Of a DNA stretch of 64,000 bases, positions 159 through 64,000 are shown in pieces. Positions within the stretch are counted from its first letter, which is position 1. Each line of letters begins with the position of its first letter. The notes under the pieces were generated by a model, which saw only the letters and a list, made by a program, of their open reading frames with translations, was not told the origin of the DNA and searched no databases. The stretch is from a virus (lineage: Duplodnaviria > Heunggongvirae > Uroviricota > Caudoviricetes). The stretch is taken from positions 1-64,000 of IMG/VR virus record IMGVR_UViG_3300046002_005803; one strand, written 5' to 3'. A program made the position numbers and the translations under genes.

Positions 159-716
159 CTATTTATAGGGTTTGGCCCACCTGGTATTGATCACATTCCA
201 GTTTATGATCTTCCACTGTTCGGTTAAATACTTTTTCTTGTCTGAACCGTAGTCCAATATCCAGGCGTGTTCCCATCGGTCAACTAATAACAATATATCA
301 TCGCGTACTTCATGGTTCTTGATCGTTTTAATCTTACCATCAGTCGCTAAGTATACCCAACCCGATCCTTCTAACTTCATAAATTCAGTTTCAAATTCAG
401 ACTTCATGTTATCATAATCACCATAGTGCTTATTGATGAATCCAAACATAGGGCCGTTGGGTTTGTTATTGTTTCTTACTTCACGGAATTGAGGGAATAA
501 GGTGTTATGCAAAAAAGCACCTGCATAGTTGAAATCTCTGTCACCCTCTTTTTTGTTGTAGCGTTCAGCGTAACCGTGGGCTAGTTTCCCGTAGTGTAGA
601 TCCAATGTATCTTTGGATAGAACGGGACTAACTTCAGCCGGAGTGAAGTTTAGTGGTATAATTTCTATGTCTTGCGGTTTACTCTTTTCCTCAAGTAACT
701 GGATTAAATGTCGCAT
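159..716 (-). CDS. sod: Fe/Mn-type superoxide dismutase with an extra ~18-aa N-terminal extension
   Basis: C-terminal DRWEHAWILDYG matches the Fe/Mn SOD signature D-x-W-E-H-A-Y-Y; GSGWVYL resembles FGSGWAWL; N-terminal region has LHYGKLAHGY (SOD H..KHH-like) and LNFTPAEVSP (resembles FELPALPY..LEP). Residues 1-18 (MRHLIQLLEEKSKPQDIE) precede the normal SOD start. Confidence 0.75.
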   Translation of the reverse strand: MRHLIQLLEEKSKPQDIEIIPLNFTPAEVSPVLSKDTLDLHYGKLAHGYAERYNKKEGDRDFNYAGAFLHNTLFPQFREVRNNNKPNGPMFGFINKHYGDYDNMKSEFETEFMKLEGSGWVYLATDGKIKTIKNHEVRDDILLLVDRWEHAWILDYGSDKKKYLTEQWKIINWNVINTRWAKPYK

Positions 717-2027: not shown

Positions 2028-2594
2028 TCAAGTTTTATGGATATACGGTCCATAAATCTTTTCCAGTTCATGGATAGTTTGTGCAGTATTAGCATCTTCA
2101 TGCTTAACCGCGATACCACCTGCGTTGCTCCATGCTTCTAAATACTTACCAAAATCATCTACCAAAACATTTGGTTCACCATCTTGTGTGGCGTATTTGA
2201 ACTTTCCACTGGTGAAAATAGCTTCACCACTTGTACCCGGATTATATTGATCTAACCAGTGTTTTTTACCGTCAATGCTGCTTTGCTTAAACGGGCCTCG
2301 TAACGGAGCAGACAACACAGTATAGGGAATCTTGTTATCTTTCAGCCACATGATAATACGCATTCCACCGGTCAATGGTTTCAAGTCTTTGAAAAATTGA
2401 TAAATTTGTTCTGGACTAGAATTTGCTAATTCGTTGATAGCTTCTTCCGGATTTGGGATTGCTTTATAAGTTGAAACATTGTGTTTTTGTGCCCATGCTC
2501 CAAAAAAATCCGCTTGTACACCGTCCATATCTAGATACAAATGTGGCATTTTCGCTTCAGCCGTATCTTCTAATAATTCTCTTATTTGCATCAT
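2028..2594 (-). CDS. HAD-superfamily 5'(3')-deoxyribonucleotidase
   Basis: N-terminal HLYLDMDGVQADF is the DxDGV(L)aDF motif I of 5'(3')-deoxyribonucleotidases; size of 188 aa is typical. Confidence 0.65.
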   Translation of the reverse strand: MMQIRELLEDTAEAKMPHLYLDMDGVQADFFGAWAQKHNVSTYKAIPNPEEAINELANSSPEQIYQFFKDLKPLTGGMRIIMWLKDNKIPYTVLSAPLRGPFKQSSIDGKKHWLDQYNPGTSGEAIFTSGKFKYATQDGEPNVLVDDFGKYLEAWSNAGGIAVKHEDANTAQTIHELEKIYGPYIHKT

Positions 2595-5476: not shown

Positions 5477-6190
5477 ATGAGCAAGCGGCTTGGTGTATTG
5501 GGTGGTATGGGGCCTGCTGCTTCAGCCGAATTTATGGTAAGACTGATTGCTCAAACTCCGGCAAAGCGTGACCAAGACCATATCCCTGCAATTCTTTGGA
5601 GCGACACCACAGTTCCAGACCGTAGCACTAGTATGCGAAATGGTGATGACAAACCGTTACCCTACCTGTTAGCGGGAATACAAGGATTAATATCAACCGG
5701 TTGTAATATAATTGTTATACCATGCAATACTGCACATTTTTGGTTTAACGAAATGGAAAAACAAGCATCGTGGCATGCTAAAATTGCTCATATTGTAGAT
5801 AGTGTTGCAGATGCATTAAGAGACATAAAAGTTACTAATGCTAAAATAGGCGTCATGGGTACACAAGCAACTATTGAGTTGGGTATGTATCAGTACCGTC
5901 TAAATAAGTTAGGTTGGGATTGTATTGCACCGACTAAAGAAGAAATGGATACACTAGTACAGCCTGCCATTGATTTAATTAAAGCCAATCAGATTGCAGA
6001 AGCATATCCAATGTTAATGACTGTAATTCATAGTCTTATTGACAAAGGAGCAAAAGCAGTGGTATTAGGCTGCACTGAAATACCACTGTCTATTAAAGAA
6101 GATACAGTACAGGATACACCAATAATTAACAGCATTGACAGTTTAGTAAAGTCTGTTATTAAAGAATTCAAAAAGGGGAAACTAACATGA
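5477..6190 (+). CDS. Aspartate racemase (Asp/Glu racemase superfamily)
   Basis: MSKRLGVLGGMGPAASAEFMVRLIAQTPAKRDQDHIPAIL...IIVIPCNTAHFWF has a near-identical motif order to archaeal/bacterial aspartate racemase (IGILGGMGPLAT...TPAKRDQEH...IMPCNTAH). The track ORF starts at 5390, but the ATG at 5477 begins the conserved N-terminus. Confidence 0.8.
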   Translation: MSKRLGVLGGMGPAASAEFMVRLIAQTPAKRDQDHIPAILWSDTTVPDRSTSMRNGDDKPLPYLLAGIQGLISTGCNIIVIPCNTAHFWFNEMEKQASWHAKIAHIVDSVADALRDIKVTNAKIGVMGTQATIELGMYQYRLNKLGWDCIAPTKEEMDTLVQPAIDLIKANQIAEAYPMLMTVIHSLIDKGAKAVVLGCTEIPLSIKEDTVQDTPIINSIDSLVKSVIKEFKKGKLT

Positions 6191-41605: not shown

Positions 41606-42796
41606 ATGAGATTTAATGAAATTATATCCGAAGCAGGTAGTCCTGCCCAACAAGCAGCAATTGCAATTGCCATGAAAAAAGCTGGAAAGAAGCCAAAGCA
41701 AGGTGTGGCGGAAGGCAACCTAGAAGAAATTGACCGCAGAGGATTCTTAAGAGGCTTGGGTGCGGCCACTGTGGCAGGTGCGACTAATAATGCAATGGCT
41801 GCTCTAGGGTCACCTACTGCTCCAAGGGCACAGGTTAAAGTGCCGCCTGTGCCACAGTTACCCGCACGAGACGGTGATCTAGGTAATGGCAATAGAGTAA
41901 CAACAAACAAAGATGGTACTAGAACTTATTCTGGCGGGTTTGGTTCATTTACATACAATGCTCAGGGTAAGGCTATAACATATAGTAGTCCTAACTTTAA
42001 TGGATCTGGCCAAACCATCGACTTAACTACTAATCAAATTACGCAAAATTACAATGCAGGACCATTGAAGATTAAACAAACTACCGATGCTACCGGTAAG
42101 CAAGTAGCGGCTGATAAATCATATGATCTTGGTGCAGCAACTGTCAGACAGCAAACCGACGCAACGGGGAAAAATACTAACACAGCTTATGTTCCAATGG
42201 ATGATACAACTCATGTTGTAGATAAACCAACCCTTAGAAAAGCCTTTGCGAAATGGCTGCCGGAAGGCTCTGAGGCAAGTGATAATCTAGTATCCACACT
42301 GAATTCTTTCGGATATTACTCTGACAACAGTAGTGTTTATGCAAATGATGACGGTGATAAGATTGTTCGTCAAGGTTCTAATTGGAAACATCAAGATGGT
42401 CAACGTGGTACTGGTGCTGAAGAATTAGGTAATTTCCTCAGTTCACAAGAAGTTGATGAAGGCGAAACTTGGTCAAAGCATAACAACCCAAGAGCAGGTG
42501 GGATGAGTAAAAAGTCTGTTAGTAGCTATCGCCGCAGTCATCCTGGTAGCAAGATTCAAACAGCGGTAACAACTAAGCCAAGCAAACTTAAAAAAGGTAG
42601 CAAGGCAGCAAAGCGTAGAGCTAGCTTTTGTGCCAGAATGCGTGGAATGAAGAAACATCGTACTGGTGCAAAAACAGCAAGAGATCCAAATAGCAATATA
42701 AATAAAAGTTTGCGTAGATGGCATTGCGAAAGCATTGAAGAACTACATGAATTAGTAATGCTTGCTGAACAATTTATTAGGAATAACAAGAAATGA
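41606..42796 (+). CDS. Capsid-targeted (CTS-bearing) protein with internal Tat-like twin-arginine signal and highly basic C-terminus
   Basis: N-terminal MRFNEIISEAG (CTS-like), then DRRGFLRGLGAATVAGATNNAMAALGSP (S/T-RRxFLK-like motif plus hydrophobic h-region), a Gly/Thr/Asn-rich middle and a KR-rich tail. Confidence 0.5.
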   Translation: MRFNEIISEAGSPAQQAAIAIAMKKAGKKPKQGVAEGNLEEIDRRGFLRGLGAATVAGATNNAMAALGSPTAPRAQVKVPPVPQLPARDGDLGNGNRVTTNKDGTRTYSGGFGSFTYNAQGKAITYSSPNFNGSGQTIDLTTNQITQNYNAGPLKIKQTTDATGKQVAADKSYDLGAATVRQQTDATGKNTNTAYVPMDDTTHVVDKPTLRKAFAKWLPEGSEASDNLVSTLNSFGYYSDNSSVYANDDGDKIVRQGSNWKHQDGQRGTGAEELGNFLSSQEVDEGETWSKHNNPRAGGMSKKSVSSYRRSHPGSKIQTAVTTKPSKLKKGSKAAKRRASFCARMRGMKKHRTGAKTARDPNSNINKSLRRWHCESIEELHELVMLAEQFIRNNKK

Positions 42797-44448
42797 ACTT
42801 CAAAGAATTATTAGAAGGCGCAGAGCCAAAGTTGCCGGGCGCCCCAAAGGGTATCTCAATTATGACACCTCAGCAATTTGTTGCTAGTGCTGGTGATATG
42901 CCAGATGAAGAAGTAGATGAAGGCAGATTTACACATGGTCCAGGTGGCGTTCCACTTGATCGCCAGGGTAATCCCAAGGTAGCAAAGCCAGCTATGCCTA
43001 AATTATCAAGAATGTCTGCACCAGAACCTAAATTAGATTTAGATAAGATTTGGTTTGATGTTACTCAGATCATCAGCAACATTTTCCCAGATGGTGATCC
43101 AGCTGACTACTTGCCAAAGTATGCCCGCAAACATGGGATAACATATGATGATATTCGCGCAGCAGCTAAAAAGAATGGTTATGAAGATGAGTATGCTTAC
43201 ATTGATGATATGAAAACCGGTGACTATGGTTATGATGAGCAAAGTTTAGCGGAAGGTGAAGAACATCTAGCAAGAATTCGTAGTCTATCTGGACTAGATG
43301 AAGCAACTAAACTACCAGCACAAACTCGTGACTTAAAGGGTCAAGAGTTTCAAGATTACATGAAACGAATCGTTGGTACTCCCGATGTAGATAAAGCAGG
43401 CAATGTTAAAGTAGATAAAAAGGGCAATGAAAAATATACAACTGGTAAAACTAAAGGTGACAAGTACAAGATGCCTTACATCCATCGTAGTAGTGTAGTT
43501 ACATACTTAAGTCCAGATGGTAAAACATACGATGAAGATGCTGTTAAACAAACATTAGCAATTCGTCCCAAAGCATTACTTAAACAAAACGAAAAGATGA
43601 AGCACAGCAATGGTGAGTTTGAACAATTCTTTAATGTTGGGTTCGCGGCATTGGTAGGTATTGCATTAGATGAACAAACAAATAATCTAATTGTTGTTAA
43701 CACATGTCCAGGCGCCGGCTCTTGTAAAGTTGATTGTTTCGCCATGAAGGGCGGCAAGATTCAATTTAAGGCTGCATGGCAAAGTGACGGCAGAATACTT
43801 ACATATCTGTTGAATGATCCAGATGGTTTCTTTAATCAACTAAGCAATGAAATCTCTGCTGAATCACAAGAGGGTGCTGCAGGCGATAAGAAATTCCCCA
43901 ATGGATGGAAAGTAACGGTTCGTTGGCATGATGCCGGCGACTTCTTCAGTCCAGAATACTTGGATATGGCATTAAAAATGGCTGCTAAACATCCTGATGT
44001 TAGATTCTATGCGTACACTAAGATGGCAGGAGCAGCATTAGCTAAGAAGCCAGATAACTTCATCATCAATTGGAGTGAAGGTGCTAACACCGAGCAAGAG
44101 AAACAAGTAAAGGCTCAGGATCCTAAATTAGATAAGACAAAGAACAGTCGTATTGTTCCAGAGAAACTATTCTATGACTTATTGGCCAAGGATGAGAAGG
44201 GTAACTTGAAAAAGACGGATGACGGAGCATGGCAACCTGCTGATGACGCAGCACTTAAACAAATGAAACAACGAATTGCTAACGAATACGGCATTAGTTC
44301 TTCAAGTATTTTAAGTTATAATGAATATATGTCTAAGAGAAATTCAATTCCAGCTGGAATGAAGTACAATGTTATCGTTGCACCGGGTGAAGGTGATGTT
44401 AGTGCGAATGATCCTGGTGTATTGAGTACCCTATTGTTAAGACATTAA
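42793..44448 (+). CDS. Capsid-targeted (CTS-bearing) large protein, function unknown
   Basis: N-terminal MNFKELLEGAE; ATGA overlap with the upstream gene; 551 aa. Confidence 0.45.
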   Translation: MNFKELLEGAEPKLPGAPKGISIMTPQQFVASAGDMPDEEVDEGRFTHGPGGVPLDRQGNPKVAKPAMPKLSRMSAPEPKLDLDKIWFDVTQIISNIFPDGDPADYLPKYARKHGITYDDIRAAAKKNGYEDEYAYIDDMKTGDYGYDEQSLAEGEEHLARIRSLSGLDEATKLPAQTRDLKGQEFQDYMKRIVGTPDVDKAGNVKVDKKGNEKYTTGKTKGDKYKMPYIHRSSVVTYLSPDGKTYDEDAVKQTLAIRPKALLKQNEKMKHSNGEFEQFFNVGFAALVGIALDEQTNNLIVVNTCPGAGSCKVDCFAMKGGKIQFKAAWQSDGRILTYLLNDPDGFFNQLSNEISAESQEGAAGDKKFPNGWKVTVRWHDAGDFFSPEYLDMALKMAAKHPDVRFYAYTKMAGAALAKKPDNFIINWSEGANTEQEKQVKAQDPKLDKTKNSRIVPEKLFYDLLAKDEKGNLKKTDDGAWQPADDAALKQMKQRIANEYGISSSSILSYNEYMSKRNSIPAGMKYNVIVAPGEGDVSANDPGVLSTLLLRH

Positions 44449-45344
44449 TGAGAGCAACTGAATTTATCGCAGAAGCAATACTAGATGAAGCAGCTACTGC
44501 TATTGTCTACCATTATGCCGGTGTATCTGCTGCTGCAAAAATTCTAACTACTGGAGTTTTTCAATTAAGTAGTGTCACAGGTAACTCTAGTGAAGAACAA
44601 TATGCACCGCCGGGATATCTTTACTTTCTAAGCACAACTCGCAGCAAAGTGGGAGACTATCACCGATATACTGGTAGCAGCGCCGCTATGTTTGTAATTG
44701 ATGGGAACTGGTTAAATCGGCATTACAAAACAAAAGCAATTGATTATTGGGAAAGGTCTTGGCAACATAGTAACGGTACTCGTACCAGTGAAAGCGAAGA
44801 TAGAGTATTTTCAAAGACACCTGAAATTCCAATTAACGGAGTAATTGCTGTTCATGTTTTGCTCAAAGAACAGAGCGAAAATCGTAGCCCCGAAGTTAGA
44901 ACAATTTTAATCACTGCCAAGAAGCAAGGTATATCAGCTTACTTATACACAGATGAGAAGGCATGGCGTTTACAAGATACCCGCAAAGCAGTTACTCCCG
45001 GTGACGCTGCTAAATTGCTTAAAGGACAACAACCAAAAGGTTACACACCAAGTCGTCCGCCGACAATGTACCTTGAACCGTGGGTAGAACTAATATATAA
45101 AAACAAAAAATCAGATTTAACTAGCCGTGCTGAAAAGTTGCGATATGAATTAGTCTACTATGGCAGTAGACGTCCAGATTCCGATAGTAATCTTGGTGTA
45201 GATATGAGCAATGCTCGTAAACCTAATTCTACTGATTATCCAACTGCTGTTAAATTAAATGATTTTATGCGTAAGAATAAGTTACCAGATACAGTAGCAC
45301 TTAAAAATATGCTAGTTGATAAATGGGTTAAAATTAAATCTTAA
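44448..45344 (+). CDS. Capsid-targeted (CTS-bearing) protein, function unknown
   Basis: N-terminal MRATEFIAEAI is almost identical to the T4 IPI/II/III CTS core (EFIAEA); TAATG coupling. Confidence 0.5.
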   Translation: MRATEFIAEAILDEAATAIVYHYAGVSAAAKILTTGVFQLSSVTGNSSEEQYAPPGYLYFLSTTRSKVGDYHRYTGSSAAMFVIDGNWLNRHYKTKAIDYWERSWQHSNGTRTSESEDRVFSKTPEIPINGVIAVHVLLKEQSENRSPEVRTILITAKKQGISAYLYTDEKAWRLQDTRKAVTPGDAAKLLKGQQPKGYTPSRPPTMYLEPWVELIYKNKKSDLTSRAEKLRYELVYYGSRRPDSDSNLGVDMSNARKPNSTDYPTAVKLNDFMRKNKLPDTVALKNMLVDKWVKIKS

Positions 45345-58902: not shown

Positions 58903-59487
58903 TTATTGAAAGATTTCCGGGTGATCTTTGCCAAATACTTTCATATATTTTCCGGCACTCATATCAGCTAGCATTTCAATTGGACTACCTGGGTAACTAT
59001 CACCTGGTTTAATCATATCCAATTCACCTTGACGGACATGAGTAAGTTCATGCAGGACCGTACGCATAATATCAACCATATTACGATTAGCAACATATAC
59101 CCAAACATTATTATCATTTGTACTATGGCGACCAGTATGATGACCTTCTTGTGCTTCTTCAGTATCGTAGCTGAATTCAATTTCGGGTACTGATTGTAGA
59201 TTAAGTTTTTGTGCTGCAAATTGAATGAATTTCTGCATTATTGGGTTATCTGCTAAAAAGTCTGGTTCGTCATTTTCTTCATCTAGCTTGCCCTTAACCC
59301 AGTTATCCGGTGATCGTTTGAATTTCCGCACAAATAGGTCATGTAGTGCTTTGCTAGTAATACTATGTCTACTAGCAACTTGACGCATTAATTTGTCAAT
59401 CGTTGTGTAGTCATGTTTTTGCAATGACGGCAAGCGTTTTGCCAATTCATTTGTAGCGGATTCAATAATAATGTGTTCAGTGAGCAT
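58903..59487 (-). CDS. Hypothetical protein with HExxH motif (VLHELTHV)
   Basis: Motif only. Confidence 0.3.
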   Translation of the reverse strand: MLTEHIIIESATNELAKRLPSLQKHDYTTIDKLMRQVASRHSITSKALHDLFVRKFKRSPDNWVKGKLDEENDEPDFLADNPIMQKFIQFAAQKLNLQSVPEIEFSYDTEEAQEGHHTGRHSTNDNNVWVYVANRNMVDIMRTVLHELTHVRQGELDMIKPGDSYPGSPIEMLADMSAGKYMKVFGKDHPEIFQ

Positions 59488-60076: not shown

Positions 60077-60517
60077 TTAATTACACCAACTAGTTTTAGC
60101 TTCACCATAGTATTCTCGGGCAAAACCTTGACTAATTAACATTTGTCTAAGACTTTGTCCATTTAATATTACATCACCCAACACACGCCCGCCATACTTG
60201 TCCCAATCCATGAGAACAATTTGTCTTTTAGTTGCTACTTCAATTGCATGTTTAGTGAAGGCAGTTGCTGCTTGACCTCGTTGCTCCTCACTAGGACATT
60301 TTGCCCTGAAACCTTTTTCCGGTGTATCAACACCAAACACACGAATACTTAATTCTTTCTTTAATGGATCAGGTAAGAACGGTGCGTGAAAGGCTACCGT
60401 ATCACCATCAATAACCCTAGTTATTACAGCATCATATGTTACACCTTCTTTTTGTTTTTGTGCTAATACAACACTAGATAGTATTGTCAATGCTAATAAT
60501 ATTATTATTTTTTTCAT
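60077..60517 (-). CDS. Secreted staphylococcal-nuclease-like (SNase/thermonuclease) protein
   Basis: Signal peptide MKKIIILLALTILSSVVLAQ; VIDGDTV...RVFGVDTPE...DKYGGRVLG...G.AREYY follows the SNase core pattern. Confidence 0.7.
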   Translation of the reverse strand: MKKIIILLALTILSSVVLAQKQKEGVTYDAVITRVIDGDTVAFHAPFLPDPLKKELSIRVFGVDTPEKGFRAKCPSEEQRGQAATAFTKHAIEVATKRQIVLMDWDKYGGRVLGDVILNGQSLRQMLISQGFAREYYGEAKTSWCN

Positions 60518-61890
60518 GTTGATTTAATGCGTTTCTTGTAATCTATAAAGTTTGCGTGTCTATCTTCTAATCCTGATAGTGAAGAATTAATTTTCTTAGT
60601 AACTGCGGCAGTATCATCAAAGTTATTTATCCCCGGTTTAACTCTTGTGTTCCAATACCACAGTGCTACCTTTAACGCTATGTCAGGCCTTGCTGCAAGT
60701 TCAGGTTGTTTGAGTAAGTTTATCTTCAAGGCGTCACCTGCCATACGATAGTTGTCACGACCGGTCAATTGAATATATCCTCTGCCGTGATATCTAGCAC
60801 CATCTCCCACTTGTTTATTACCAAGTATCTTAGCAGTTCTGGGTGAATGTTTAACATCGTATTTTTTAGCAAAATAATCTTTTACCTTTGGTTGTGGCTT
60901 TTCTTGTAACCTACTAAAATTCCAAGTTTCATGTTTCGTCTGAGCTAAAAATTGTGCTAATTCTGATCCCTTCATTCCTTCTTTTTTTGCAGTTTGATAT
61001 AAAACATTTTCTGCTTGTGTATCTACTGTGGGAGATGCTGCTTTAACTACGGGTGTTGCTGCTTTAACTTGTACTTCAGGAGCAGCATCGGGTTGAGTTA
61101 TTTTAGATATTTTAGCTGTTCTAACTGGTTCTACCGGAGAATTATATTGATTAGCAGCACCTAATGCTCCCAATGCCATAGCACCACCAGCGACCCAGTT
61201 CTTCCAATCTTCTTCTAAATCATCTAGTTCAACTAATTGTCTATATGGCTCATCACCGGTCCATCTTGAACCCTGATCCATTGCTTCGCCGACTGCTGGA
61301 TCCCACTTCATGCTCTTACTACCCTTGTGTATAGGAGCGAAGCCTTGCCCCTTGTAGAACTTTGTTAGTTTACTTTGACTTACTTGACCGTGTTGCCAAG
61401 GGAACAATGTTAGTGCAATTCCATCTGCTTGTGCCATGGCTTGCAATTCTTTCATTGCGCGTGAGCCGACCCCTTGACGTAGTGGATATGCTTGAAACCA
61501 TTTTACTTCTACTGCACCTCGTTTGCTGAAACTTGGGGTTAGTTCAAACATTGCAAGCTGCTGAGTGTCACCTTCGCCCCACATCATTACATGATTATTT
61601 TTAAAGATAGTTGGATACTTTTGATAGACCTTTTCAATCCAAGCCTTTGCGGCATCGTTGTTGCTTATTTTGATTGGTTCATCTTCCTTCATTAATTTAC
61701 TAATGCGAGGCTTGAATAACTGTACTTCACCTTTGTTAGTTTTTAGTACAGGTTGATTGTGCTTGTCTTTAGTAAAGCCTTTAATCTCTGCTGGACTATT
61801 CTTAAATTTACCCTTGAGGATTTTATCACCAACTGATAACTTGGGCGGTTGATATGAGGCAGTCTCATTAATAAATTCAATTGCTCTCAT
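60514..61890 (-). CDS. Capsid-targeted (CTS-bearing) fusion protein: GNAT-like acetyltransferase domain plus glycoside-hydrolase family 19 lysozyme/chitinase domain
   Basis: N-terminal MRAIEFINETA; GNAT motif A VKWFQAYPLRQGVGSRAM; GH19 catalytic/signature segments KHETWNF, YHGRGYIQLTGRDNY, VALWYWN. Confidence 0.6.
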   Translation of the reverse strand: MRAIEFINETASYQPPKLSVGDKILKGKFKNSPAEIKGFTKDKHNQPVLKTNKGEVQLFKPRISKLMKEDEPIKISNNDAAKAWIEKVYQKYPTIFKNNHVMMWGEGDTQQLAMFELTPSFSKRGAVEVKWFQAYPLRQGVGSRAMKELQAMAQADGIALTLFPWQHGQVSQSKLTKFYKGQGFAPIHKGSKSMKWDPAVGEAMDQGSRWTGDEPYRQLVELDDLEEDWKNWVAGGAMALGALGAANQYNSPVEPVRTAKISKITQPDAAPEVQVKAATPVVKAASPTVDTQAENVLYQTAKKEGMKGSELAQFLAQTKHETWNFSRLQEKPQPKVKDYFAKKYDVKHSPRTAKILGNKQVGDGARYHGRGYIQLTGRDNYRMAGDALKINLLKQPELAARPDIALKVALWYWNTRVKPGINNFDDTAAVTKKINSSLSGLEDRHANFIDYKKRIKST

Positions 61891-62330
61891 TACTCACGGG
61901 CTTTTTTAAGTGTAGCACGAATCATCCATGCTTTCTTGGCATATAAGTCTTGTAGTTCAGCTAGATAATTGGCAATTCCCTGTGCTTTTTCTTCTGTTGC
62001 AATGTCAAATAATTCAGTTACTAACTTAATCATTTTTTCACAATCAACTAGTAGTTCTTCAAGCATTAATTCAGCACGAGGAATTTTATGTTGTTCTTCA
62101 ATGATACTCAATTCAAGCATTCTGCCTAAGCTGCCTGGAGAATAACTGCCTAAAGTTCTGATATATTCGGCAATAGTATCAATAGTTCCATAGATTTCAT
62201 CATACATTTTATTTAAAAATTTATGATATTGCGGGAAATTGCTTCCTTCGATATTCCAGTGAAATCCGTGAGTTTTTGTATACAGTACAAATGTACTGCC
62301 CAATAGTGTTTTTAAGTTATCTGATAACAT
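61890..62330 (-). CDS. dps: Dps (DNA-binding ferritin-like protein)
   Basis: FVLYTKTHGFHWNIEGSNFPQYHKFLNKMYDEI is the Dps ferroxidase-centre signature (LYqKTHnFHWNvkG.nF..lHe.fee.Yde). Confidence 0.8.
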   Translation of the reverse strand: MLSDNLKTLLGSTFVLYTKTHGFHWNIEGSNFPQYHKFLNKMYDEIYGTIDTIAEYIRTLGSYSPGSLGRMLELSIIEEQHKIPRAELMLEELLVDCEKMIKLVTELFDIATEEKAQGIANYLAELQDLYAKKAWMIRATLKKARE

Positions 62331-62332
62331 TA

Positions 62333-63484
62333 TTATCCTTTAGTTTTCTTTGTGTTGACATTGATGGCTTTACCACTACGCTCTGGATTGGGATCTTCTC
62401 TGCGTTTTCTTGCTGCTGCACTTGCACGACCCTTTTTACCTAAACTGTGTGCTTTACTTTGAGGCAAACATTTTGGTTTACCTTCTCCCGGCTCTCTTGC
62501 ACATGGACCCTTGATATTACCTTTGGTATCCATGCGAACCCACTTTTCTTTATTAAACCAATCATGTAAACTTTCATCCGTTTGATTTATGCCTTCTAGT
62601 ATAGAACTTTCATTCTTACTACTATTACCCCAATTACTTGCACCTTTTTTACGACATTTGACTAATGCACCGCTAGCATAGGCACTTGGCCATACTTTAT
62701 AACGGCTTTTTACTTTATAGTAGCAAGCATCTTTCTTTTCATTCATTATCATTTCACTGAACATTGGTCCATTACAGTGTGGGCAACTATGTTGTTCCTC
62801 CGCCACACCTTGTTCTTTTTGACCTTGCTGTTGCGCCCATTGAGCAATTTTTCCAAAGAGTGTATCAGGAACACCGAGGTCTGTAGCAGCCTTTGGATCG
62901 CTAATATCAACTACGTTAATAGTTCTATCAGCAAGTGGACCGCTTGATTGAATAGGGCCACCTGATGCAATCGTTGCGGCACCTGTGTATTTTTTTTCTG
63001 GATCATTTAGTCTTTGATCTAATCCCAATTGTTTAGCAACATTAGGAGCCACTGGTTTTATGTCAATAAATGATGCTGAGTTACTTGCAGTAGATAAATT
63101 TTGGTTGCGGCGCCAACTGGCTGCAACGTATGTGCCATTGGCTAATCTAACATAAGTGGTCACTGGAGCAAAGATATCTAATTCATTTAACTTGTCCTCC
63201 GACACACCTTGTTCGGTTGTTAGTGTACCAGTGCGTCTTTGTCCGGAACCTTTGAACATATCATTTGTTTCTTCATATGTTCCTGGATAAGGTATACCAA
63301 CTGATTCTTTCTTAACATCATTTGCAAATTGTTTATTAGTTGCTTTTACAATGCCACTAAAACGCTTGTTGCCACGAGCAAAATCTTTTTCTTTATCTGC
63401 TTTACTGGCATCGGCTGCGGCAGCAGTTTTGTATTGTGCTAACTTTTCGTTAGATAGTTCTGTTAAAAAATCTGATGGTTTCAT
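62333..63484 (-). CDS. Hypothetical large basic protein with CTS-like N-terminus (MKPSDFLTEL)
   Basis: 383 aa; Cys cluster CPHCNG; KR-rich C-terminus. Confidence 0.4.
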   Translation of the reverse strand: MKPSDFLTELSNEKLAQYKTAAAADASKADKEKDFARGNKRFSGIVKATNKQFANDVKKESVGIPYPGTYEETNDMFKGSGQRRTGTLTTEQGVSEDKLNELDIFAPVTTYVRLANGTYVAASWRRNQNLSTASNSASFIDIKPVAPNVAKQLGLDQRLNDPEKKYTGAATIASGGPIQSSGPLADRTINVVDISDPKAATDLGVPDTLFGKIAQWAQQQGQKEQGVAEEQHSCPHCNGPMFSEMIMNEKKDACYYKVKSRYKVWPSAYASGALVKCRKKGASNWGNSSKNESSILEGINQTDESLHDWFNKEKWVRMDTKGNIKGPCAREPGEGKPKCLPQSKAHSLGKKGRASAAARKRREDPNPERSGKAINVNTKKTKG

Positions 63485-63485
63485 A

Positions 63486-63974
63486 TTATTTCTTATTCTT
63501 GTTATCTAACATGCCGCGTTTGTTAGCAGTTGCCCAAGCAATGTTCTTAGCGACTTTCTTTGACTTGCCTGCCTTTTCTTCACTCTTTTCAATATGACTA
63601 ACCATACGATCTACTTTGGCACCTTCACTAACTTTTTTCTTAGCAGCATCCCATGCAGCATCAGTCTTTACATTGTATTCTTTACCACCGGCGCCAATAT
63701 CAGCAATTTCGTCCTTGTCGAAATTTGGATATCTGGACCAGCGGGTGGAAGGTGTGTATCCTTTACGGCATAATTTCATCTCTGCGTTAGCTTGTTTGTC
63801 TGACATATAGGGACTTGGAGAGCTGCCTTCCGCCACATCTTTCTCTGGTTCTGTTGGTTTGGGTTTCTTTCTGGGACTATCTAACCAAGGATACTTGGAG
63901 CCTTCCGCTACATCTTGTGTTGCATACTTGGCGTACACCTTGCTATTTTCACCATAGCCATGTCTCCTAGCCAT
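63486..63974 (-). CDS. Hypothetical Lys-rich protein with internal DVAEGS repeats
   Basis: QDVAEGSKYPW / KDVAEGSSPSPY repeat. Confidence 0.35.
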   Translation of the reverse strand: MARRHGYGENSKVYAKYATQDVAEGSKYPWLDSPRKKPKPTEPEKDVAEGSSPSPYMSDKQANAEMKLCRKGYTPSTRWSRYPNFDKDEIADIGAGGKEYNVKTDAAWDAAKKKVSEGAKVDRMVSHIEKSEEKAGKSKKVAKNIAWATANKRGMLDNKNKK

Positions 63975-64000
63975 TTGTTGTAATTGCGCTTGGGTCTTGC

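Follow-up and report, generated by a model that had tools for sequence, protein, structure and literature searches.

A tagged, modular pro-protein with GNAT-fold and GH19 muramidase modules is predicted in an uncultured jumbo phage

The DNA analysed here comprises positions 1 to 64,000 of the IMG/VR virus record IMGVR_UViG_3300046002_005803, assigned to the Caudoviricetes (hereafter, the window), and the subject of this report is an open reading frame (ORF) on its minus strand at 60514..61890. The ORF begins with ATG, encodes 458 amino acids (aa) and closes with a stop codon at 60514-60516; its start overlaps the stop of an upstream Dps gene, and its end overlaps the start of a downstream staphylococcal-type nuclease (SNase) gene. 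A previous reading made without database searches (the sequence-only reading) had described the product as a fusion of a T4-like capsid-targeting N-terminus, an acetyltransferase-like motif A and a C-terminal GH19 domain, and had proposed a packaged or ejected peptidoglycan hydrolase. Beyond these elements, we observed an SH3-like module (aa 10-69), a leader (aa 228-247), (L/I/V/M)xE junctions and a mosaic protein family. The features of the ORF are as follows, with slashes marking cut sites or their putative counterparts.

60514..61890, minus strand: predicted tagged modular pro-protein, whole ORF, 458 aa
61864..61890, minus strand: tag MRAIEFINE, aa 1-9, T4-type capsid-targeting or propeptide-like, ending in I-N-E
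61684..61863, minus strand: cassette A, Lys-rich SH3/Tudor/KOW-like beta-barrel, aa 10-69, ending in ...KLMKE (AlphaFold2 model)
61285..61683, minus strand: cassette B, minimal GNAT fold, aa 70-202, ending in A-V-G-E (AlphaFold2 and Foldseek)
61210..61284, minus strand: acidic spacer, aa 203-227, AMDQGSRWTGDEPYRQLVE/LDDLEE/, with two further (L)xE sites
61150..61209, minus strand: leader resembling a signal peptide or signal-arrest-release (SAR) domain, aa 228-247, DWKNWVAGGAMALGALGAAN (hydropathy and Hessa-scale sums)
61027..61149, minus strand: low-complexity Pro/Ala/Val/Lys/Gln-rich linker, aa 248-288
60517..61026, minus strand: GH19 muramidase domain, aa 289-458 (Pfam, PHROG and PDB sequence matches)

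Profile searches matched the C-terminal part to Pfam PF00182 at aa 299-419 (E=1.2e-14; 55.1 bits against a cut-off of 25.5) and to PHROG 181 'endolysin' (E=2e-36), and PDB sequence matches were obtained to the phage GH19 lysins 7r6s (E=3e-24) and 4ok7 (SPN1S; E=6e-19). The strings HET, YHGRGYIQLTGRDNY and ALWYW, which the sequence-only reading had taken as diagnostic, were all found, as was the signature [YF]xGRG[YF][IV]Q[LI]TG in the form YHGRGYIQLTG. The expected glutamates, E321 in KHETW (HET) and E330 in RLQEK (LQEK), lie 9 residues apart in a region that aligns with HESGGFTRLQE of 4ok7; this is presumably the catalytic pair, as in GH19 enzymes generally. An HE[ST] motif was present in 104 of the 121 family proteins tested. 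The concern that database searches would expose the GH19-like motifs as spurious was thus not borne out by the Pfam, PHROG or PDB matches, and these identify the C-terminus unambiguously as an intact GH19 muramidase domain of the phage lysin subgroup. The linker in front of it (aa 248-288) varies in length and sequence among homologues.

Among cultured phages, S-CREM2, S-B68 and FLC9 have the closest GH19 domains, in each case at the C-terminus of a very large protein. In S-CREM2 this protein is gp208, which carries a virion-protein annotation and is encoded two genes ahead of the baseplate central spike; in S-B68 it is an 840-aa protein two genes after gp26, and in FLC9 it is the unannotated gp42 (2240 aa). 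The generalisation that GH19 domains are normally endolysins, on which the sequence-only reading had leaned, was therefore too strong. These matches are also what speaks for a tail or baseplate entry lysin, acting from outside at penetration, as in T4-like cyanophages, where the closest GH19 domains form the C-termini of tape-measure or hub-like proteins. However, the product of our ORF has no Gly-rich tape-measure or hub domain, its gene lies near the family-B DNA polymerase gene (PolB) and has no tail-gene neighbours, and the three cultured-phage proteins carry no tag and no comparable leader. Moreover, a tail lysin acting in the periplasm needs no signal peptide, yet a leader was present in nearly every GH19 member examined, and we consider this explanation highly improbable. 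S-CREM2, S-B68 and FLC9 were likewise tried as a link to published virion proteomes and rejected, their GH19 proteins being without the tag or a comparable leader.

For the acetyltransferase-like element, sequence profiles remained below threshold with Acetyltransf_1 (12.5 bits against 20.7, E=0.18) and Acetyltransf_7 (12.4 bits against 27), and PHROGs returned no family for aa 1-206. For aa 1-206, AlphaFold was run on an alignment of 36 family sequences and gave a model with a mean predicted local distance difference test score (pLDDT) of 85.7 and values of at least 90 over most of aa 80-200. When this model was searched against the PDB with Foldseek, the top 50 matches were GNAT acetyltransferases without exception. 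The best was the anti-CRISPR protein AcrVA5 (6iuf; TM-score 0.67 normalised to our protein, 20% identity), followed by 6ajm, 5zgn and 7ak7 (AtaT, KacT and TacT); E-values were modest (5e-4), and phmmer gave E=0.3 to 6iuf. Because the top 50 matches to the predicted fold are GNATs alone, the model supports cassette B as a minimal GNAT acetyltransferase fold, in line with the sequence-only reading. The motif noted there, RQGVGSRAM, which lies in the stretch LRQGVGSRAM, has the G-x-G at the spacing expected from GNAT motif A, the pyrophosphate-binding loop (R/Q)-x-x-G-x-(G/A), with Leu in the first position and the Arg shifted by one. The stretch YPLRQGVGSRAM of the cassette is highly conserved across the family.

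Cassette A, which precedes it, is basic (isoelectric point, pI, 10.1) and was modelled with a pLDDT of 81.5. Foldseek returned nothing significant for it (best PDB E=0.13), so that its likeness to SH3, Tudor and KOW domains is one of fold class alone. It also occurs in stand-alone proteins of about 70 aa consisting of tag and cassette A.

When 5.8 billion proteins were searched, 1356 relatives were recovered, every one of them metagenomic and some on contigs of 200-350 kb. Nearly all start with MRA(x)EF(I/L/V)xE, followed by a variable string of cassettes in which GH19 is present or absent. Partner cassettes identified by profile were further GNAT domains, GGACT/AIG2, DUF6934 and LysM; others looked ParB-, ADP-ribosyltransferase (ART)- or kinase-like by eye alone. 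The GNAT cassette profile matched 541 clusters at 50% identity (190 at E<=1e-30), with the cassette at any position in proteins of about 110-1850 aa. Among its best 150 matches, GH19 was also found in 5 of 141 newly returned representative proteins, and among the matches listed most of the closest homologues carried both the GNAT and the GH19 cassette. The fusion that the sequence-only reading had called unusual is accordingly no one-off. By sequence, the protein is one member of a very large mosaic family of uncultured jumbo phages with interchangeable cassettes behind one tag.

The source genome itself was placed by PolB, which showed 42-48% identity to those of the jumbo myoviruses Phosso, Vibrio 2.275.O, Atu_ph07, XaC1 and Rak2/K64-1. 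On this evidence, together with the ligase and a weak, below-threshold DsbA-like match, the genome is assigned to an uncultured jumbo phage of the T4 superfamily. The window has a GC content of about 38%, and a tRNA scan of its 64 kb found no tRNA. At least 23 contigs encode the identical 458-aa protein, among them a JGI metagenome contig of 234,546 bp (3300044984, Ga0485158_0000001) in which the window takes up roughly positions 86.5-150.5 kb. Searches against 50,697 phage records gave no match, either with megablast for the 9 kb around the ORF, for which no near-identical deposited phage DNA thus exists in this set, or with tblastn for aa 1-228, which indicates that the N-terminal cassettes are absent from deposited phage genomes.

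To characterise the N-terminus, we compared it with the T4 capsid-targeting sequence (CTS), the first 10 residues of the internal protein IPIII (MKTYQEFIAE), in which targeting depends on residues 4 and 7, and processing by the prohead protease gp21 on residues 8 and 10. In the alignment of MRAIEFINE/T with this sequence, F6, I7 and E9 correspond to F7, I8 and E10. The T4 N-termini considered (NC_000866) were gp22 MLKEQLIAE/A, gp21 MNEPQLLIE/T, gp24 MAKINELLRE/S, Alt MELITELFDE/D, Inh MIDKDYIAE/L and gp67 MEGLIE/A, along with the gp23 cut site FLTE/A. The tag pattern was found at 6 of 106 ORF N-termini in the window against 0.19% of internal 10-residue windows (p=6e-8, about 30-fold), and in a control on T4 it matched exactly gp21, gp22, gp24 and Alt among 53 annotated coding sequences. 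The T4-like capsid-targeting N-terminus proposed by the sequence-only reading was therefore upheld as a pattern that is enriched in the window and specific in T4.

The tag is near-invariant across homologues, while the cassettes downstream change completely. Its codons differ between paralogues, so it is conserved as a peptide and not as DNA. The tag has lineage-specific variants: on a related 318-kb jumbo-phage contig (JACCEB010992830.1), neighbouring genes in a run start with MRLYELFE, MRLQELLE, MRLQELFE, MKITDIIVE, MRIKDIINE and MRLQQLLE. Within our window, the ORFs fitting the scheme, besides the one at 60514..61890, are those at 44448, 41606, 62333, 58903 and 159 (MRHLIQLLE/E). The tagged or tag-like ORFs away from our gene are as follows.

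159-716, minus strand: Fe/Mn superoxide dismutase (SOD), N-terminus MRHLIQLLEE..., fits the tested tag pattern
2028-2594, minus strand: NT5C 5'-deoxyribonucleotidase, N-terminus MMQIRELLED..., similar but outside the tag pattern
41606..42796, plus strand: MRFNEIISE/A ... QGVAE/GNLEE/IDRRGFLRGLGAATVAGATNNAMA/A, a leader of the twin-arginine translocation (Tat) type, then about 330 aa ending in DUF6321 / phrog_727
42793..44448, plus strand: tag-like MNFKELLEG, 551 aa, GP88 domain (PF17338, E=2.5e-25), weak C-terminal LysM
44448..45344, plus strand: tag MRATEFIAE/A, the closest match to the T4 CTS
58903..59487, minus strand: tag MLTEHIIIE/S, 194 aa, zincin HExxH motif (VLHELTHV), weak WLM match

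The cargo of 44448-45344 begins 'IVYHYAG...FLSTTRS', and a homologous N-terminal region was seen on another jumbo-phage contig (L001 11190-12080). This cargo could be ADP-ribosyltransferase-like and an analogue of Alt. The protein of 42793-44448 may be a further wall-binding cargo, and that of 58903-59487 may be a metallopeptidase such as polyvalent proteins often contain, which would make it an alternative candidate for polyprotein processing.

Analysis of the cassette boundaries revealed a regular grammar. Just outside the GNAT cassette, nearly every boundary reads (L/I/V/M)-x-E and then a small residue, for example LNE/D, ITE/N, LMKE/D and VWE/D upstream and AVGE/A, SIDE/A, ELDE/G and EVSE/A downstream. 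With boundaries defined by hidden Markov model and a set made non-redundant at 50% identity, [LIVM]xE stood at the downstream junction in 95/104 proteins (background about 0.25) and at the upstream junction in 69/83 (background about 0.30). An alignment-free test agreed with this: of the BLAST breakpoints between family members of different build, 34% lay no more than 2 residues from such a Glu, compared with 7% for random positions. Over the two tests, the enrichment above background is 3- to 5-fold. The breakpoints in our own protein were at aa 68, 200, 211 and 222. It contains eight [LIVM]xE sites, five of them at junctions (E9, E69, E202, E221 and E227), while the remaining three lie inside the folded GNAT domain or at the GH19 residue E330. 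T4-family prohead proteases cleave after Glu in x-X-E motifs. The pieces that such cleavage would leave are basic (pI 9.5-10.1), as are the T4 internal proteins, while the tag and spacers are acidic (pI 4.1-4.9). The (L/I/V/M)xE junctions suggest a polyprotein rather than a fusion enzyme. A QGVAEG-type linker was found in the window in tagged proteins only, but with 2 sites against 0 the numbers are too few to use.

Within the spacer (aa 203-227), a mini-module W-T-G-D-(E/D)-x-Y-R-(Q/H)-L-V-E recurs 5' of the leader in many homologues, whichever cassette precedes it. This module may be a cleavage recognition element or an inhibitory pro-segment.

A role of the tag other than targeting was also considered, and late-promoter-like boxes in the window speak for it. 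ATAAATA boxes lie 2-7 nucleotides (nt) 5' of eight ATG starts that have no Shine-Dalgarno sequence (window positions 167, 2596-2602, 19531, 59492 and others; about 6000-6036 in the flanking locus L010). ATAAATA is the core of the T4 late promoter TATAAATA, and this spacing points to leaderless or nearly leaderless late transcripts. The tag might accordingly be a shared cassette for translation initiation, as on leaderless late mRNAs, or for recombination, as microhomology for gene shuffling, with the protein a multi-domain enzyme and (L/I/V)xE generic acidic linkers. The AT-rich genome, which constrains the codon choice for MRAxEFI, and the tag-like N-termini of SOD and NT5C would fit such a role, and the T4 internal protein loci are shuffling hot-spots. 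However, our gene has no immediate promoter, its start overlapping the Dps stop, and lineages keep the pattern (basic, x, x, acidic, hydrophobic, hydrophobic, x, Glu) while residues and codons differ. The specificity of the pattern for gp21 substrates in T4, the 3- to 5-fold junction enrichment and the contrast between acidic excised pieces and basic cassettes also speak against this role, and we regard it as improbable.

In the leader, the hydrophobic core (h-region) spans about 15 residues and is Gly/Ala-rich and weakly hydrophobic, so that the segment looks like a signal-peptide h-region or a SAR domain. A stable transmembrane anchor was rejected, because the Hessa-scale sum of the best 19-mer was +9.5 and the leader is too short and too weakly hydrophobic; with an h-region of this length, the leader must sit near a free N-terminus. 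The stretch WVAGGAMALGALGAA fits a SAR domain in composition but begins at aa 232 of 458, far from the extreme N-terminal position of such domains. Nor is the leader a Tat signal, which would have (S/T)-R-R-x-F-L-K, a moderately hydrophobic h-region and an AxA site, since W-K takes the place of R-R.

A leader lies 5' of GH19 in nearly all of the 104 GH19 homologues tested, usually beginning 1-3 residues past (L/I/V)xE, and in 14 of them it is the twin-arginine form SRRGFLGALGG...AEA. Pfam TAT_signal matched at the internal leader in 8/8 homologues tested, each time below threshold (13-19 bits against 22.7). Leaders were found as far in as aa 427 and end in AxA-like motifs (AEA, GAA). A search with leader plus GH19 recovered minimal members of the clade composed of tag, leader and GH19 alone, namely 28 clusters of the form MRAxEFIxE-D(M/I)SRRGFLG... 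and 13 with a short spacer and a WK-type leader; it recovered no full-length member starting directly with the leader. In the minimal homologues, the tag runs straight into the Tat motif (MRATEFITEDMSRRGFLG), leaving 12 residues before the twin arginines. The position of the leader 5' of GH19 implies that the enzyme must cross the inner membrane from the cytoplasmic side. The same succession of tag, LxE and Tat leader is found in ORF 41606, whose leader IDRRGFLRG...AMA/A matches Pfam TAT_signal at aa 41-60 (E=0.002), so the layout is not lysozyme-specific.

These minimal members bring in a different use of the leader, namely export of a lysis enzyme in the producing cell. Here GH19 would be freed into the periplasm late in infection by signal peptidase and act as a secreted or SAR-like endolysin without any packaging, the tag and cassettes being a cytoplasmic pro-region or separate enzymes. 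Twelve residues is a normal n-region length for a Tat signal, and the tag and Tat motif of the minimal homologues would by themselves make a normal Tat signal, which makes this a serious alternative; the AxA-like leader ends and the PHROG name 'endolysin' agree with it as well. It meets difficulty in the leader at aa 228 here and up to aa 427 in homologues, behind folded domains, and in an h-region of about 15 Gly/Ala-rich residues that is too weak for a signal anchor. It also leaves unexplained why one tag heads many leaderless proteins of unrelated cassettes, why (L/I/V)xE lies 1-3 residues before the leader in most homologues and why no full-length member begins with the leader. An unregulated secreted muramidase would, in addition, lyse the cell prematurely.

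The genes around the ORF bear on the same question. Tightly packed on the minus strand are, in order, a 789-aa gene, a 383-aa DUF5872 protein, Dps/ferritin, our gene and SNase, a run that we infer to be an operon.

63486-64000, continuing in L010 6036-8405, minus strand: C-terminal part, at the window edge, of a 789-aa protein with N-terminus MRFNQIVEN
62333..63484, minus strand: DUF5872 / phrog_727 protein with tag MKPSDFLTE/L and a QGVAE linker inside
61890..62330, minus strand: Dps/ferritin-like protein, untagged, upstream gene with conserved position
60077..60517, minus strand: SNase with N-terminal Sec signal peptide, downstream gene

A DsbA-like ORF and the T4-type PolB follow about 3 kb beyond SNase, and a PP-loop ATPase is also among the neighbours. 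The 789-aa protein contains ten (V/I/L)(A/S)E(G/A/V) linkers of the QGVAEG type ('(Q/K)(G/D)(V/I)(A/S)EG') and repeated 'GSKYPWLDSPRKKP' units, and thus looks like a multi-site polyprotein or a repeat protein. The T4-late-promoter-like box GATAAATAC lies 24 nt 5' of its gene, two genes upstream of ours at the head of the run; this box would fit a lysis gene equally well.

SNase has an ordinary N-terminal Sec signal, which is the direct-secretion mode of this phage. On a related contig (locus L014 11389-12210), an Endonuclease_NS gene lies directly downstream of the GH19 gene; the pairing of GH19 with a following secreted nuclease is therefore conserved while the nuclease family differs. Such a pair suggests two periplasm-directed products and counts in favour of export for lysis of the producing cell. 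Against this stands the 318-kb contig introduced above, which has a separate, untagged Peptidase_M15_3 protein (L001 5082-5543) 5 kb upstream of its tagged GH19 homologue. The M15 protein is, by sequence, a plausible conventional endolysin candidate, suggesting a different role for the tagged GH19. Taken with the evidence from the leader, we hold release of an exported lysis enzyme in the producing cell, the main alternative to packaging, to be possible but doubtful.

Among the explanations considered, a modular pro-protein, and not a single multifunctional enzyme, best explains the gene product. The single reading that we favour, with a probability of about 45%, is that of a packaged and ejected muramidase: a capsid-targeted pro-protein would be cut into basic fragments and ejected, and its lysozyme would reach the periplasm through an unmasked leader. 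MRAIEFINE would act like the T4 CTS and steer the protein into the assembling prohead, where a T4-type prohead protease, cutting after the Glu of (L/I/V/M)-x-E, would remove the tag at E9 and also cut the cassette junctions at E69, E202 and E221/E227. Three basic fragments would stay in the head, an SH3-like Lys-rich one of about 6.8 kDa, the GNAT of about 15 kDa and leader, linker and GH19 of about 25.6 kDa, to be ejected together with the DNA at the next infection. The GNAT would then act on a host macromolecule, while the GH19 fragment, its leader now N-terminal, would cross the inner membrane by host Sec, or by Tat in homologues with SRRGFLG leaders, and cleave peptidoglycan from the periplasmic side.

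We infer packaging, cleavage, ejection and export from several lines of evidence. The tag pattern is specific in T4 and is accompanied by the junction grammar and the charge pattern; the cassettes recombine behind a constant tag and occur as stand-alone tagged proteins; the related genome has an untagged M15 endolysin candidate; and the GH19 clade sits in very large cultured-phage proteins, once with a virion annotation. The interpretation given by the sequence-only reading is thereby retained in its three named elements and in the packaged or ejected hydrolase as the best single reading, and given up in its view of GH19 domains as normally endolysins and of the fusion as unusual.

Several observations weigh against packaging. 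Neither the 64-kb window nor its 10-kb flanks include the head and protease genes of this genome, and the ORF is in a replication or early-type region, not among structural genes, although T4 alt likewise adjoins ligase. The E69 junction is M-K-E and not the canonical L/I-x-E, and the association of late-promoter-like boxes with tagged genes was not significant (Fisher p=0.09). The tag-like N-terminal extensions of SOD and NT5C, of 10-16 residues, are odd for packaged cargo, the former fitting the pattern and the latter similar without fitting; either housekeeping-type enzymes are also capsid cargo or the meaning of the tag is broader. In the minimal homologues, the nonapeptide could be the n-region of a working Tat signal that allows export without packaging. 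Finally, it is hard to see what a newly begun infection would gain from exporting a muramidase, and harm could result.

Two extensions of the packaged pro-protein reading can be stated. We tentatively suggest a protease-unmasked signal, which we hold to be possible but less likely than not: the prohead protease that trims the tag would also expose a buried Sec or Tat leader on packaged cargo, and after ejection into the cytoplasm of the next host, the export machinery of that host would take the muramidase and cargo of the ORF 41606 type to the periplasm. More widely, the effector polyproteins of the lineage, with their T4-CTS tags and LxE delimiters, would form a whole set, and their cargo-loading grammar would be legible in the sequence itself.

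If the tag and the grammar of the junctions hold true, sequence alone would suffice to predict the packaged and ejected repertoire of a large group of uncultured giant phages, in which cassettes (GNAT, GH19, GGACT, small basic proteins and many others) are combined in hundreds of ways. The T4 CTS principle would then reach far beyond the T-even phages, where it is already a protein-delivery tool, and a simple polyprotein mechanism would tie it to the polyvalent-protein concept. With a signal peptide set directly behind a capsid-protease site, a virus would have a new means of sending an injected enzyme to another compartment of the next host. Should lysis of the producing cell prove to be the function instead, the proteins would be endolysins exported by Tat/Sec, a family whose unusual pro-region would still make it of interest to lysis biology.

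GH19 lysins, GNATs, T4-type CTSs, multi-effector phage proteins and virion-associated lysins are all known kinds. In the literature searched, which did not extend to subscription journals, we found neither a T4-type tag heading LxE-delimited effector strings in uncultured jumbo phages nor a Sec/Tat-type leader right behind a putative capsid-protease site and before a muramidase, and no relevant paper on CTS in combination with twin-arginine or peptidoglycan.

Comparison with known systems begins with T4. Its internal proteins and Alt share with our protein a short N-terminal M-x(3-6)-hydrophobic-hydrophobic-x-E, EFIxE being common to the T4 CTS and MRAIEFINE. The mature T4 internal proteins resemble the predicted pieces in being basic and resemble the family in presenting hypervariable cargo behind a constant tag. 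Alt offers a parallel as an enzyme delivered by the T4-type route whose gene lies beside replication genes. Unlike the T4 internal proteins, our protein strings several cargos in one polypeptide with cut-site-like junctions between them and includes a peptidoglycan hydrolase with a Sec/Tat-like leader, something that none of the T4 internal proteins contains. Its phage is a distant jumbo relative (PolB 42-48% identical to the Rak2 / Atu_ph07 / Vibrio 2.275.O group), and its packaging is a prediction.

Virion-associated hydrolases such as the T7 gp16 lytic transglycosylase, the T4 gp5 lysozyme and large GH19 proteins of cyanophages and jumbo phages place a muralytic domain in the virion for the wall of the next host, a role that is established for T7 gp16 and T4 gp5. 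They belong to structural, tail or core proteins and have direct access to the periplasm. In contrast, the muramidase described here forms a small soluble module whose signal peptide looks cleavable, implying that the enzyme passes through the cytoplasm and is exported by host machinery.

Signal-peptide and SAR endolysins (P1 Lyz, phage 21 R, fOg44 Lys44) likewise have a Gly/Ala-rich, weakly hydrophobic leader before a muralytic domain, and their export is independent of a canonical holin. However, the leader of our family is never truly N-terminal but always tag-capped, in our protein with 227 residues of other modules first, and many homologues carry a twin-arginine motif, whereas no Tat-dependent endolysin is described in the literature searched.

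Polyvalent proteins (Iyer, Burroughs, Anand, de Souza, Aravind 2017, PMC5512222) join disparate effector domains in one polypeptide and vary extremely in architecture, and their delivery together with the DNA is predicted. Their lysozyme domains were proposed to breach peptidoglycan at invasion, and a GNAT family beside ART domains was described in gammaproteobacterial (pro)phages and an uncultured marine phage (PMC5512222); this family may be related to cassette B. Our protein has SH3-like, GNAT and GH19 domains in one polypeptide, with the same domains recombined in homologues. Polyvalent proteins, whose definition does not include the T4 CTS, are typically tied to late-gene neighbourhoods and to domains of the MuF, portal or zincin-peptidase kind. 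Our gene, with Dps, SNase, a PP-loop ATPase and PolB as its neighbours, showed no such association with packaging or late virion genes or with these domains, the nearest to such a context being the late-promoter-like box upstream and the separate tagged zincin-motif ORF 1 kb away. Delivery would also differ in using a T4-type tag and prohead-protease processing at regular LxE junctions, and the proteins of our family are small (2-4 modules), with each module also occurring alone with the tag.

Finally, the proteins that match cassette B best in structure, AcrVA5 and AtaT/KacT/TacT, are all small GNATs whose acetylation of a macromolecule takes place in a conflict setting. The sequence similarity of cassette B to AcrVA5 is marginal (phmmer E=0.3 to 6iuf). 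AcrVA5 acetylates Cas12a as an anti-CRISPR protein, and AtaT, KacT and TacT are tRNA-acetylating toxins.

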